From an uncultured Actinomycetota bacterium (GTDB lineage: Bacteria; Actinomycetota; Nitriliruptoria; Nitriliruptorales; JAHWKO01): a stretch of 46,477 bases of DNA. The notes beneath the pieces were generated by a model that searched no databases, had not been told where the DNA came from, and saw only the letters and a program-made list of their open reading frames with translations. The stretch spans positions 1 through 46,477 of the forward strand of contig CAZHZQ010000003.1 in NCBI GenBank assembly GCA_964537235.1, in the 5' to 3' direction. The position numbers and the translations under genes are program-made. Numbering within the stretch: the first letter of the stretch is position 1; each line of letters begins with the position of its first letter. This document shows positions 12,710 to 20,736 of the stretch, piece by piece.

Positions 12710-14377
12710 GTGAGGACCGCCACCGTGTCCCAACCGATGACCAGGATCCGTGGCCTGCTCGCCGCGGTGACCGCCGCTCTGCTGGTGGCGGCGATGACGC
12801 CGGGTTCGACCTGGACCGCCTCCAGCGCCGGGGCTGCCACAGAGAACATCGGGGGCGGTGCCGCGGTCGTCGTGGACCGGGCCGTGGACGCGGCAGCGCG
12901 GTCGGCTGGGGCGGTGGAGGTGATCGTCCGCGCCTACCCGGAGCGGGTCCGCGAAGCTCACCACGCCGTGACCCGGGCGGGTGGAGAGGTGCTGCGTCCG
13001 CTCCCGATCGTCGATGGGTTCTCGGCCCGACTGACGACTGGCGCGATCGAGCAGCTCCGGCGTTCCGGCAGCGATCTGATCCGCGTCATCACCCTCGACG
13101 GCCAGGTGCGTTTCAACCACGACGCACCCGAGGGTGAGGCGTACAACGACTCCTCCTTCGTCGAGACGATCGGGGCGCATCGGCTCCACCGCAAGGGCGT
13201 CGACGGTGCCGGTGTCGGCATCGCCATCATCGACACGGGGGTGTCTGAGGTCGCCGACCTGCGGAGTCGCATCGTCGGAGGCGTCGACGTGACCGCCGAC
13301 GGGGACGGGGTCGACCGCTACGGCCACGGCACATTCGTCGCCGGGGTCGCAGCCGGCTCGGGGGTGTCGTCGGACGGGGAGCACGCGGGCGTCGCACCCG
13401 GGGCGCACATCGTCCCGGTCAAGATCGCGAGCGCCAACGGTGCGGCCGATGTCTCCCACGTCCTCGCCGCGATCCAGTGGGTCGTCAGCTTCAAGGACGA
13501 CTACGACATCGAGATCCTGAACATGTCGTTCGGGACGGACTCCACCCAGTCGTACACGCTGGATCCGCTGAACTACGCCGTCGAAAAGGCGTGGGACGAG
13601 GGCATCGTCGTGGTGGTAGCTGCCGCGAACGACGGGCCGGAGGCCGGGACCGTCTTCAAGCCGGCCGACGACCCGATGGTCATCACCGTCGGGGCCACCG
13701 ACTCCAACGGCACGGTCAAACGGGGCGACGACATCGTCGCGGACTTCTCTTCACGTGGGCCCACCCGTGCGGACGGGCTCGAGAAGCCGGATCTGGTCGC
13801 GCCCGGTGCGCACACGATCGGTCTGCGTTCGCCCGGCTCGACGATCGACAGCTCGTACCCGCAAGCACGCGTCGGAGACCACTACTTCCGCGGATCCGGG
13901 ACATCGTTCGCGACCGCCGTGACCTCGGGTGCGGTGGCGCTGCTCAAGCAGCTGTACCCGGGCTGGACCCCGGACGACGTCAAGGGCGCCCTGTTCAAGC
14001 TCGCCGCCGACGGTCCGGTCGGCGATCCGAACGTGGACGGCAAGGGCGCGCTGGACGTGCGCTGGGCCGACCAGATCGACAACACCGGTCTGAGCCAGGC
14101 GGGGATCACCCGCAGCACCGGCTCCGGGACGATGGACGCATCCCGCGGCAACCTCGTGATAGAGATCGAGAAGGACCCGGTTGCCGGGCTCCTGGACGTC
14201 CTCGACGGTGACTACACGGCTCAGGACCAGCTGTTCGACTTCCTCGAGTACACCACCACCGACTGGAGCGCTGCCAACTGGTACGAGAGCCAGTGGACGG
14301 CGGCGAACTGGTACGCGGCGAACTGGTACGCGGCCAACTGGTACGCGGCGAACTGGTACGCGGCCAACTGGTACTGA
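12710..14377 (+). CDS. Secreted S8 (subtilisin-like) serine peptidase 1 with C-terminal AANWY pentapeptide array
   Basis: GTG 12710 after RBS AGGAG (ORF open from 12677); signal-peptide-like N-terminus; I9-like prodomain; triad motifs IIDTG, HGTFVAG, GTSF; oxyanion AAAN; KPDLVAPG; tail TTDWS-AANWY-ESQWT-(AANWY)x5-stop. Confidence 0.92.
   Translation: MRTATVSQPMTRIRGLLAAVTAALLVAAMTPGSTWTASSAGAATENIGGGAAVVVDRAVDAAARSAGAVEVIVRAYPERVREAHHAVTRAGGEVLRPLPIVDGFSARLTTGAIEQLRRSGSDLIRVITLDGQVRFNHDAPEGEAYNDSSFVETIGAHRLHRKGVDGAGVGIAIIDTGVSEVADLRSRIVGGVDVTADGDGVDRYGHGTFVAGVAAGSGVSSDGEHAGVAPGAHIVPVKIASANGAADVSHVLAAIQWVVSFKDDYDIEILNMSFGTDSTQSYTLDPLNYAVEKAWDEGIVVVVAAANDGPEAGTVFKPADDPMVITVGATDSNGTVKRGDDIVADFSSRGPTRADGLEKPDLVAPGAHTIGLRSPGSTIDSSYPQARVGDHYFRGSGTSFATAVTSGAVALLKQLYPGWTPDDVKGALFKLAADGPVGDPNVDGKGALDVRWADQIDNTGLSQAGITRSTGSGTMDASRGNLVIEIEKDPVAGLLDVLDGDYTAQDQLFDFLEYTTTDWSAANWYESQWTAANWYAANWYAANWYAANWYAANWY
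14270..14374 (+). repeat. 15-bp coding tandem repeat (AANWY): one copy at 14270-14284 and five tandem copies at 14300-14374
   Basis: GCGGC(G/C)AACTGGTAC x5, preceded by GCTGCCAACTGGTAC; all differences synonymous. Confidence 0.97.
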
Positions 14378-14387
14378 GAAGGGCACC

Positions 14388-18427: not shown

Positions 18428-18453
18428 GCTGACGAGCCGAGGGCGATGAGGGG

Positions 18454-20736
18454 ATGGACGGTGGAGGCAGGTTGAGGACCTACGTTCCCGCCGTGTCCCT
18501 TGCTGGGACCGTTGCCGTCGCCGCGTTCGCCGTGGTACGGCCTGCGTGGCCGATCGACTGGTTCCTCGCGACGGTCCTCGTCCTCGCGATGGCCGTCAGC
18601 CTGCACACGAACATCCGCTACCAACGCCGGGGTGGCGTACAGGGCCTGCACGTGAACGACGGCATCATGGTGGCCCTCCTCTTCACCGTTCCGGCGGGCG
18701 CGGTCCCGGTTCTGAGTGCGCTCGCCGCCATCCTGGGCAACGCGGCGCGAACCAAGGACGCACGCAAGGTGGTGTTCAACGCCGGCGCACAGGGGCTCGC
18801 GACGCTGGCTGCGACGATCGCGTTCCACGCCCTCTGGAGTGGGCAGAGCGTGCTCGAGATGCAGGCGTTGTTGGCGGTCGTTGCGAGCTTGATCGTCTAC
18901 AACCTCTTCGACATCGCGTTGTACGGGCAACTGTTCCATCTGCTCGAGGGGCGCCCGTACCGCGAGCTGCTGGCCGAGTCCATACCGCTGTACACCGCGT
19001 CATGGACCGGCAACCTGCTCGGCGGTCTCCTCCTCGCGTTCATCGTGACCACCAACCGCACCGCGACGCTGTTCGCGTTCGTGCTCGTCGTCGGCATGCA
19101 CCTCGGTTACCGCGGGTACGCCATGGCGATCGAGGAACGGAGCCGCAACCAGAACTACCACTCGGTGACCCGCATCCTCACCGAGGCCGTGACCTCCGAG
19201 TACTCGATCGAACGGTTCCTCGCAGCCATGGAGGAGCTCTTCGGTGCGGCCGGGATCGAGCTCGTGACGGTGGTCGAGGACGGACCGACGCTGTACCGGT
19301 ACGCGGACGGCACGTTGCAGACCTCGCACCGGATGCCGGAGTCCGGGGAGGCTCTCTCGGAGGCGCTCCGACGGGGAGGGCCCGTGCAGTACCACGTCGG
19401 GTCCGAGGGCGAACCGCAACCCGACGCTCGCACCGCGGACCACCAGGTCATGGCGGCGCCCCTGACCTACCGCGGTCTGACGATCGGAGCGCTCGCGGTG
19501 CACGGGCGGCGCGGGCTCGAGACGCAGGAGGATCAGGAACTGCAGGTCCTCGCGTCGATCGCGAACGACGCGGCGATCGCTCTGCAGAACGTGCAGCTGT
19601 TCCGCTCGGTCGAGCACGAGCGGTCCCTGCTGGCAGAGGAGTCACAGAAGCTGCAGGACATCCTCGATGCGGCGTCCGACGGGATCGCCATGGTCGACGC
19701 GGATGGGCGGATCGTGGCCTGGAACCCGGCCATGGCGGCTCTCACAGGGACGGAACGCCGAGACGCCCTCAGCCACCCCTGGTTCATGGCGTTGCGGTTC
19801 CGTGATCCGAGCGGGGAGGAGCTGGCGGTGGACGGCGGCGGACCGTTGCAGACCGTCCTGGAAGGCGGCGCCCTCTCCGAACCGCTGGACCTGCAGGTGC
19901 TCCGGAGGGACGGGGAGTGGCGGTGGGTGCGGTGCACCTTCTCCCCGGTCCGCCGCGACGACGACGGGAACGTCGGGGTGGTGCTCGTCGCCCGTGACGT
20001 CACCCGGGAGCGTGAGACCGAGGAGATGAAGACGGACTTCATCGCCACGGTCTCGCACGAGCTGCGGACCCCCTTGACGCCGCTGAAGGGGTTCCTGGTG
20101 ACGTTGCTCGAGGGGCGGGATCGCATCGACCCCGACGATCTCGAGACGTTCCACCGGTCGATGCTGCGGCAGGTGGAACGTCTCGAGACGCTCGTCGCCG
20201 ACCTGCTCGTCGTCGCGGACCTCGACGGTGGTGCGATCAGGCTGCGCGCGGCGGTGAACCCCGTCCACGAGATCGTGGAAGCCGCCGTGGCTCTCGAGCG
20301 ACCGCTGGTCGATCCCGACCGCGTGCAGATCGTCGCCTCCGAAGACCTGCAGGTCGTCGGGGACCGGGGCGCGATCCAGCGGATCGTCCAGGCGTTGCTG
20401 AGCAACGGGGTCAAGCACACCAACGGGACCGTGCAGGTACGGATACACGGTGACGACCGACGGGCCCACATCGAGGTCGAGGACGAGGGGCCCGGGATCG
20501 CACCGGCCGATCAGGACCGCATCTTCCAGCGCTTCACCCGGCTCGGTCACCACTTGACGCGGGCGACCCAGGGCTCGGGGCTGGGTCTGTCGATCGCGCG
20601 CAGTCTGGCGGAACGTCTCGGTGGGGACCTGACGGTCAGTTCCGATCCCGGCCGGGGGGCGGTGTTCACGCTCTCCCTGCCGTTGGCGGGCCCGCGGACG
20701 GTCGCCGACCTCGGGAGACGTTCGGAGGCGGGATGA
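18454..20736 (+). CDS. Membrane sensor histidine kinase 2 (multi-TM sensor + GAF + PAS + HisKA + HATPase), paralog of kinase 1
   Basis: TM region with QRRG and KVVFN; GYRGY; GAF; PAS (DGIAMVDADGRIVAWNPAM); H-box VSHELRTPL; SNGVKH, DEGPGI, IFQRF, GSGLGLSI. Confidence 0.92.
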   Translation: MDGGGRLRTYVPAVSLAGTVAVAAFAVVRPAWPIDWFLATVLVLAMAVSLHTNIRYQRRGGVQGLHVNDGIMVALLFTVPAGAVPVLSALAAILGNAARTKDARKVVFNAGAQGLATLAATIAFHALWSGQSVLEMQALLAVVASLIVYNLFDIALYGQLFHLLEGRPYRELLAESIPLYTASWTGNLLGGLLLAFIVTTNRTATLFAFVLVVGMHLGYRGYAMAIEERSRNQNYHSVTRILTEAVTSEYSIERFLAAMEELFGAAGIELVTVVEDGPTLYRYADGTLQTSHRMPESGEALSEALRRGGPVQYHVGSEGEPQPDARTADHQVMAAPLTYRGLTIGALAVHGRRGLETQEDQELQVLASIANDAAIALQNVQLFRSVEHERSLLAEESQKLQDILDAASDGIAMVDADGRIVAWNPAMAALTGTERRDALSHPWFMALRFRDPSGEELAVDGGGPLQTVLEGGALSEPLDLQVLRRDGEWRWVRCTFSPVRRDDDGNVGVVLVARDVTRERETEEMKTDFIATVSHELRTPLTPLKGFLVTLLEGRDRIDPDDLETFHRSMLRQVERLETLVADLLVVADLDGGAIRLRAAVNPVHEIVEAAVALERPLVDPDRVQIVASEDLQVVGDRGAIQRIVQALLSNGVKHTNGTVQVRIHGDDRRAHIEVEDEGPGIAPADQDRIFQRFTRLGHHLTRATQGSGLGLSIARSLAERLGGDLTVSSDPGRGAVFTLSLPLAGPRTVADLGRRSEAG

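Follow-up and report, generated by a model that had tools for sequence, protein, structure and literature searches.

Tandem Trp-pentapeptide arrays on subtilases encoded beside membrane sensors: a candidate peptide signalling module in Actinomycetota

Peptide signalling is well known in Bacillota, and the signals described from Actinomycetota are mostly small molecules such as butyrolactones. In the Agr system, a polytopic domain of the kinase AgrC reads a short hydrophobic peptide, and the specificity groups of peptide and sensor co-vary. The sensor part of the kinase ComP of the ComQXPA system is likewise polytopic, in its peptide ComX a conserved Trp is flanked by variable residues, and peptide and ComP sensor part vary together as pherotypes. 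Mature Phr signals of the Rap-Phr systems are pentapeptides, the proteases involved including the S8 enzymes subtilisin, Epr and Vpr, and in borosins and plant BURP-domain burpitide precursors the processing enzyme and a repeated core peptide lie in one polypeptide. According to excerpts of two sources, a short secreted peptide modulates ComP and ComX needs the isoprenyl transferase ComQ (PMC5799266), and Rap-Phr systems use secreted propeptides, sometimes with several pheromone copies, which are matured by extracellular proteases (PMC11343458). Here we analyse a stretch of 46,477 nt (the window; contig CAZHZQ010000003.1 of assembly GCA_964537235.1) from an uncultured Actinomycetota bacterium (Nitriliruptorales; JAHWKO01), in which two S8 peptidases (subtilases), both ending in a tandem array of one Trp-containing pentapeptide, are each followed by a gene for a membrane sensor histidine kinase. 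The analysis firmly supports a conserved peptidase-sensor module whose pentapeptide unit is under strong, module-specific selection, and we propose, with a probability of about 0.45, that the adjacent sensor recognises the array as its cognate ligand, which the protease probably sets free.

The proposed logic would resemble that of ComQXPA, Rap-Phr, Agr and the enzyme-fused precursors, none of which is related to the module in sequence. As in ComQXPA, the candidate signal is a short secreted peptide acting on a histidine kinase; ComX, however, is a separate small precursor, and ComQXPA has neither a multi-copy array nor a fused protease. Furthermore, no prenyltransferase and no other conserved third gene was found in the module: Pfam gave no match to a ComQ-like isoprenyl transferase in the genes at 32-12533 or 22460-24879 or in the five module-region genes, and a conserved exporter, modifying enzyme or regulator was rejected as the flanking genes vary in size and strand across loci. 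Phr and other RRNPPA precursors are small separate genes, whereas the array here lies inside the peptidase ORF (open reading frame); Rap receptors are cytoplasmic repeat proteins reached after import, whereas the partner here would be a membrane sensor; and Rap-Phr systems, found in Bacillota and their phages, have two or three copies, compared with 5 to more than 20 here. The membrane peptidase AgrB produces the Agr signal, a thiolactone present in a single copy, and no AgrB-like gene was seen among the neighbours scanned; AgrC belongs to another kinase subfamily than the two kinases here, with their standard HisKA domain. The enzymes of borosins and burpitides are natural-product methyltransferases or cyclases rather than subtilases, and no dedicated membrane sensor is known to accompany them. 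A full-text literature search, with subscription journals largely outside its coverage, returned no description of Trp-pentapeptide S8 tails or of an S8-sensor module.

The window belongs to a soil metagenome-assembled genome (MAG) of 3.18 Mb in 482 contigs, 80% complete, and the closest named relatives are Nitriliruptorales MAGs. A sequence-only reading of the stretch had described two co-oriented pairs, each made of a subtilisin-like peptidase with intact D/H/S motifs and an AANWY or GTNWQ tail and, about 10-26 bp downstream, a histidine kinase with several transmembrane (TM) segments, GAF and PAS domains, and had called the two proteases, like the two kinases, paralogues. ORFs, Pfam domains and translations bear this description out. 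Four same-strand genes at 12677-20736 form two peptidase-kinase pairs, the ATG of kinase 1 lying 10 nt past the stop of peptidase 1 and the start of kinase 2 lying 26 nt past that of peptidase 2, and the paralogues are 53% (peptidases) and 43% (kinases) identical. Both kinases carry GAF, PAS, HisKA and HATPase_c domains (in kinase 1 at residues 238-375, 393-512, 517-583 and 626-733, respectively) and are therefore sensor histidine kinases.

Both peptidases belong to the S8 subtilases (PF00082, 161.4 and 155.4 bits against a cut-off of 21.8), with Peptidase_S8 matched at residues 177-451 of peptidase 1 (E 3.9e-47) and 196-471 of peptidase 2 (E 2.6e-45), and the catalytic Asp, His and Ser columns (DTG, HGT, GTS) are invariant in all 118 aligned family members. 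Judged by eye, both N-termini are Sec-signal-like and are followed by a pro-region, which is consistent with export; in peptidase 1 the catalytic domain then leads into a conserved linker of about 60 aa and the pentapeptide array. Peptidase relatives are abundant, 4352 of the candidates scored reaching E <= 1e-20. The best solved relative of the catalytic domain, Tk-SP (PDB 3afg), spans peptidase residues 163-445 only, so that linker and tail are without structural precedent; no structural match listed extends past residue 466. NCBIfam gave sub-threshold matches only, the best of them to TIGR03921, a mycosin of the type VII secretion system (T7SS), at 148.7 and 151.5 bits against an equivalog cut-off of 278.75, and the peptidases here have no C-terminal TM anchor. 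A T7SS link, suggested by this model and by a WxG-like W-x-G in many units, was rejected given how far the mycosin score falls under the cut-off and given the Sec-like signal at the N-terminus, and no T7SS genes were present among the neighbours scanned.

The pairing of peptidase and sensor is conserved well beyond the window. A scan of species-representative genomes gave 79 related loci, which span Nitriliruptorales, Acidimicrobiia, Frankiales, Mycobacteriales, Kineosporiaceae, Jatrophihabitans, Motilibacter deserti and two Nocardioides species, and which include the cultured carriers Nocardioides immobilis (locus L084), N. pelophilus (L091) and M. deserti (L071). A profile of the membrane domain of the downstream protein, named here after its KxxFN motif, was searched in all six frames. 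Complete peptidase ORFs are present at 70 loci, 67 of which have at least 325 nt of downstream sequence, and in 67 of these 67 the KxxFN sensor domain follows in the same orientation, its start falling anywhere from 13 nt ahead of the peptidase stop to 189 nt beyond it (at L037 and L082 it is the second profile match, a further module lying upstream). Across 56 downstream proteins, Pfam found HATPase_c (30), HisKA (24), GGDEF (21), EAL (21), SpoIIE (5), PAS (39) and GAF (26). Because the membrane domain alone is constant while the outputs are interchangeable, the partnership is with the sensor domain. The sensor gene is split over two frames within the membrane domain at L027 (8334-10833) and L077 (840-3321), which could reflect a frameshift, a pseudogene or an assembly error.

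A sample of the phylum largely gave the same picture. In 401 genomes, some of them unpublished, and with a peptidase cut-off of E <= 1e-60, all counts being lower bounds, 94 peptidase matches extend into the tail section of the profile, and at least 63 of them have a sensor match no more than 2 kb downstream when the best 150 of 476 sensor matches are used for pairing. We fetched 23 of the 31 remaining peptidases: 11 are followed directly by a sensor with a weaker score, 3 come first in a tandem pair ahead of a sensor, 4 lie at contig ends and 5 are orphans. The peptidase almost always comes with the sensor, but the sensor family extends beyond the module. The predicted linkage of Trp-tailed S8 peptidases to KxxFN sensors with kinase, GGDEF/EAL or HD-GYP outputs is upheld by the 67 loci and most of the phylum sample for the first two kinds of output; none of the 56 downstream proteins has an HD-GYP domain.

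Tail 1 consists of six identical AANWY units and two punctuation units (TTDWS and ESQWT), and tail 2 of nine GTNWQ units and one DSQWA. Three DNA versions encode the six AANWY units; those of tail 2 also come in three, which differ only synonymously. The program TRF detects a 15-nt period in both arrays, with 5 copies and 95% matches at 14300-14374 and with 10 copies and 81% matches at 18275-18424, and periodic-Trp arrays in a real reading frame occur only in these two genes in the whole assembly. The best 120 peptidase relatives are all Trp-rich at the C-terminus, and clear xxxW[Y/W/Q...] arrays are present in nearly all of them, the remaining few having truncated or irregular tails. In these arrays the Trp is fixed and the other four positions vary between proteins (GSRWY, GTRWY, GSHWY, KNSWY, GQNWS, SAAWN, ATTWR), the array units within one protein being identical. 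Arrays are broken at conserved places by DSQW-type units, and many lineages end with caps such as GIAWE, ATAWE or YGAWE. Since punctuation units replace exactly one xxxWx block and many arrays end right after position 5, xxxWx is the natural unit. Each array has 3 to 19 modal units, and 6 to 24 periodic units in all.

We then compared the units of 65 arrays with the modal peptide and the modal DNA of each array. The modal peptide was found in 516 units, 308 of which differ from the modal DNA, and units one base away from the mode carry 84 synonymous changes against 3 non-synonymous ones, with only 19% of sites being synonymous. Changes to the unit are bimodal, 516 units being identical, 50 having one residue changed and 214, the punctuation units, two or more. 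For example, nine ATTWR units have nine DNA versions (L073) and fourteen SAAWN units have twelve (L084). As identical units mostly differ in DNA and synonymous changes are in such excess, unit identity is kept by selection on every position, including those which are free to vary between proteins, a pattern expected of residues that must match a lineage-specific partner. That identical peptides come mostly from differing DNA also led us to reject recent slippage as the source of unit identity and makes a DNA- or RNA-level role of the 15-nt repeat unlikely. A contig of soil run X5 (depth 4.7), which belongs to another study than the probable source, omits exactly 45 nt at 18340-18386, equivalent to three in-frame GTNWQ units, which may be copy-number variation or assembly collapse; contigs of four soil runs cover the stretch but tend to end at the two arrays.

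In order to see which proteins carry such arrays, a profile of 66 tails was searched against 1.84 billion representatives, giving 2172 matches at E <= 0.001. Of the 149 listed matches that were classified, 89 match the S8 core of these peptidases, with the array C-terminal in 87 and N-terminal in 2, and the other 60 are mostly eukaryote-like GMVWY/GMEWN repeats or tail fragments, so arrays are nearly confined to S8 peptidases. About 40 matches (among P0129-P0267) consist of GMVWY, GMEWN or GMAWH repeats and resemble translated eukaryotic simple-sequence DNA rather than genes. Rare carriers without an S8 domain are P0244, lipoprotein-like with eleven GSTWN units before a Cys-rich region, and P0217, of 274 aa and ending in eighteen GSAWN units. 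Among the matches listed there was no clear stand-alone family of small secreted precursors, the short ones being fragments of the family or eukaryote-like repeats.

These searches bear on the view that the array is a structural appendage which folds or self-associates (for example as a pentapeptide-repeat-like beta-helix, an aromatic sticker or an envelope or glycan anchor) and serves the peptidase only, the sensor being co-transcribed for regulation and reading something else. The consensus of pentapeptide-repeat proteins is A(D/N)(L/F)xx, with which the unit read as A-N-W-Y-A, Trp central, has some resemblance, and three distant array proteins have faint sub-threshold matches to Pentapeptide, Pentapeptide_3 and Pentapeptide_4; the few arrays on non-S8 proteins (P0244, P0217) would also suit an appendage of general use. 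On either window peptidase, however, there is no Pfam pentapeptide-repeat match (PF00805 and relatives) at E <= 0.01, copy number is variable and shows no multiple-of-four pattern, and a generic anchor would be expected on many enzyme families rather than being so nearly restricted to one. We consider this explanation unlikely, the more so as it leaves unexplained both the constant membrane domain of the sensor with its interchangeable outputs and the behaviour of duplicated modules described below.

A second family places its arrays differently. In 77 of 120 listed relatives of P0165, xxxW[D/N] arrays lie upstream of the catalytic domain; members of this type (P0165, P0234, P0285-P0370), several of which are named in their sources as Thermoplasmatota archaea, have 4-26 units, which look largely uniform within a protein and different between proteins. 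Pfam locates the array of P0308 and P0323 after a fervidolysin-type prodomain and before the S8 domain. Subtilases autocatalytically excise and degrade the region between prodomain and catalytic domain in maturation, and the archaeal pro-region arrays are thus very likely cut and, as this region is discarded, could not anchor the mature enzyme. A metagenome scan with P0165 found nine distant S8 loci, none with an array or a sensor domain.

Natural duplications, which tell more than the distance correlation given below, suggest that the unit goes with the sensor. Tandem duplications of the whole module have differing units in four of four cases (AANWY/GTNWQ in the window, GSSWA/GNSWY at L037, GSAWN/SSAWN at L082 and GWSWH/GWGWD at L102), whereas tandem duplications of the peptidase alone before one sensor keep the same unit in four of five (L075, L107, L116 and L106, of which L106 runs into the edge of its contig before a sensor appears and L107 is from an unpublished genome). 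The peptidase cores are about as similar in one group as in the other, with identities of 55-75% for module and 50-75% for peptidase-only duplications. This divergence of units in duplicated modules but not in sensor-sharing peptidases is what a structural appendage would not account for. Furthermore, over 60 modules the unit distance tracks the sensor-domain distance when peptidase distance is controlled (partial r 0.18, p 0.0005; 0 of 2000 permutations), and the reverse partial Mantel test is weaker (r 0.09, p 0.066). This co-variation of unit and sensor is suggestive only. The claim that each pair has a peptide of its own is thus borne out by purifying selection on the units, by the duplication pattern and by a modest partial Mantel correlation, and the peptide-sensor co-phylogeny that the sequence-only reading had put forward as a check came out modestly positive.

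Some cleft residues of the peptidase also vary with the unit type, at positions which we take to be the equivalents of 126 and 166 of subtilisin BPN', lining the S4/S1 pocket; at the 126-equivalent, Trp goes with Thr-ending units in 7 of 8 cases and Val with Trp-ending units in 6 of 7. Such changes would suit an autoinhibitory tail, in which the array fills the active site of its own enzyme and, serving as a timer or zymogen lock, is cut back one unit at a time; the peptides would then be by-products, and the unit would co-evolve with the cleft rather than with the sensor. The near confinement of arrays to S8 enzymes, in two positions that both suit self-cleavage, fits this explanation as well, yet the peptidase core accounts for unit distance no better than the sensor domain does, strict sensor adjacency is left unexplained and the pocket associations may only mark clades. 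It therefore seems to us quite improbable.

In an alignment of 66 sensor domains the KxxFN motif is real, its Asn being invariant and its Phe at least 90% conserved, and LxEA, RRxxxKxxFN and Gly positions are conserved too. Hydrophobic stretches and the positive-inside rule, assessed by eye, indicate about 8 hydrophobic segments with a probable short hairpin, outer loops of 4-9 residues and conserved polar residues inside the hydrophobic segments. The domain falls short of MASE9 (PF20972) in the window, kinase 2 scoring 17.1 bits against a cut-off of 24.3 and kinase 1 giving no match, and 3 of 56 module sensors reach E <= 0.001 against MASE9 (best 3.9e-5). As far as excerpts of the MASE9 description go, the two are nevertheless alike in being promiscuous N-terminal membrane domains joined to various outputs and in having about eight hydrophobic segments with a likely short hairpin, short outer loops and in-membrane polar residues; the same excerpts suggest in-membrane ligand binding for MASE9 and give no ligand or protease partner for it (bioRxiv 10.1101/2021.11.05.467447). 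A word-based search with the sensor domain gave 15 close matches. Three unpaired, more distant KxxFN copies lie on contigs C161, C152 and C59 of this genome's set (G000), that on C59 being mid-protein, after a GGDEF-like region.

This architecture, and the fact that Trp and Tyr favour the membrane interface on the Wimley-White scale, lend weight to a serious rival, in which the array is never released: as a tethered ligand or co-sensor on the outer membrane face it would dock the peptidase to the sensor in a unit-specific manner, and the sensor would report the state of the enzyme (its presence, substrate load, inhibition or removal by other proteases). A tether explains the same linkage and specificity data, the short outer loops and in-membrane polar residues of the sensor suit a ligand at the membrane interface, conserved linkers and end caps suggest an organised appendage, and the tail-profile matches listed contain no clear free-standing precursor family. 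The in-membrane binding put forward for the similar MASE9 domain, in the excerpts available of its description, points the same way (bioRxiv 10.1101/2021.11.05.467447). However, 5 to more than 20 strictly identical units and such strong selection on every position are more than a tether requires, the archaeal arrays in a discarded pro-region cannot tether a mature enzyme, and orphan and tandem peptidases would feed one sensor more easily through a shared diffusible product. We regard tethering as somewhat unlikely, although it fits most of the data equally well, which the structural and autoinhibitory explanations do less well.

Our preferred reading is that each pair is a two-gene signalling module. 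An S8 peptidase, predicted to be exported, would present at its C-terminus a tandem array of one specific xxxWx pentapeptide, and the polytopic KxxFN membrane domain of the sensor encoded next would take this pentapeptide as its cognate extracellular signal. By the most likely route, the subtilase domain would cut the array in cis or between molecules, yielding several identical Trp-pentapeptides per enzyme; these peptides would partition to the outer membrane face, where the sensor would bind and read them within or at the membrane and drive its own output, which is a histidine kinase in the window but GGDEF-EAL or PP2C at other loci. As the constant feature, the invariant Trp may serve protease recognition, membrane insertion or both, and the other four positions would set pair specificity, insulating the two modules of the window from each other. 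Release by the fused subtilase is favoured because arrays are linked to S8 domains, archaeal arrays lie in the pro-region, the triad is invariant and several peptidases may occur per sensor. The sequence-only reading had inferred that each protease is both processing enzyme and multi-copy pheromone precursor for the adjacent kinase, an interpretation which the analysis supports in part.

Several observations weigh against this reading. The sensor profile was matched in at least 216 of the 401 phylum genomes, against at least 94 for the peptidase profile, and the genome of the window itself has five sensor-domain genes and two Trp-tail peptidases: three of the five have no Trp-tail peptidase to go with them anywhere in the assembly, one of these following an AMP-ligase-like gene. 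Conversely, five Trp-tail peptidases (L098, L100, L103, L108 and L113) are orphans: no sensor lies in the following 3.5 kb or so, and the genes that come next are on the opposite strand or are small and unrelated. At L104, two peptidases with different units precede one sensor. The duplication pattern amounts to only nine cases, partial Mantel tests are lenient with related sequences, and the variation of cleft residues with unit type is inseparable from shared ancestry. As the residue after the Trp varies widely, cutting at unit boundaries would need a varying P1 specificity, and the conserved non-repeat parts (DSQW punctuation, GIAWE/YGAWE caps and the linker) suggest a tail that is more than a string of products. 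Two orphans of one genome (G179) have GVSWS/GGTWS-type units which resemble those of a paired paralogue in the same genome.

The features of the module region are listed in Table 1. A scan of 12300-22700 showed no promoter-like sites and two terminator-like sites, which were not above shuffled sequence. Among RNA runs, none was listed as covering the window.

Table 1 Features of the two peptidase-kinase pairs and the adjoining kinase (window coordinates).
Feature	Position	Strand	Basis and remarks
S8 peptidase 1	12677..14377	+	ORF, 566 aa; alternative start 12710 equals source gene call P0001, 555 aa
Array 1: TTDWS, AANWY, ESQWT, AANWY x5 up to stop	14255..14374	+	Translation read directly; TRF period 15
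Sensor histidine kinase 1	14388..16616	+	ORF, 742 aa; alternative start 14421 as in P0270
Membrane sensor domain of kinase 1	14388..15125	+	Sensor-profile match, E 9e-74
S8 peptidase 2	16643..18427	+	ORF, 594 aa; source gene call P0012 (557 aa) implies a start near 16754
Array 2: GTNWQ x2, DSQWA, GTNWQ x7 up to stop	18275..18424	+	Translation read directly; TRF
Sensor histidine kinase 2	18454..20736	+	ORF, 760 aa; Pfam domains
Membrane sensor domain of kinase 2	roughly 18454-19170	+	Sensor-profile match, E 2e-63
Third GAF histidine kinase (context only, outside the conserved module)	20733..22406	+	Pfam

The third kinase, which overlaps kinase 2 by 4 nt and is therefore probably co-transcribed with it, has no KxxFN membrane domain, and its first 300 residues have no relative among the 79 related loci at E <= 1e-10. 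It is followed by hisD and an aminotransferase gene. No response regulator gene adjoins the module, the only Response_reg match of the window being at 40415-40744, about 20 kb off. The upstream genes comprise aspS-like, mgsA, alaS and yceG genes and, directly before the module at 7164-12533, genes for a Roadblock/LC7 protein, a DUF4388 protein, a small Ras-like (MglA-type) GTPase and a PilB-type T2SSE ATPase with an MshEN domain. MshEN domains bind c-di-GMP (cyclic di-GMP), and this may matter given that GGDEF-EAL proteins are common among the module sensors of other loci. The DUF4388 protein has acidic tandem repeats of its own in its C-terminal part, at 9929-10119, of a 15-nt GIDVP type and a 12/24-nt EPAQEPSE type.

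A conserved module of peptide and membrane sensor would be new for Actinomycetota, where the peptidase occurs in at least 94 of the 401 genomes sampled. It is doubtful, though conceivable, that these modules make up a widespread and previously unrecognised form of cell-cell signalling in the phylum, in which a subtilase would be both processor and multi-copy pheromone precursor, with 5 to more than 20 peptides, a four-position pherotype code and phosphorelay, c-di-GMP or PP2C outputs, perhaps with a counterpart in Thermoplasmatota. The proposal lends itself to testing, as cultured carriers exist and the predicted products are simple synthetic pentapeptides. If true, it would supply a candidate class of ligands for a large family of MASE-type sensor domains and a new precursor logic, with the enzyme and many identical copies of the signal in one protein, and its readable specificity code would be attractive for orthogonal synthetic signalling channels. 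If the array instead stays tethered, a protease that uses a coded repeat array to dock on a sensor would itself be a co-sensor of a new kind.

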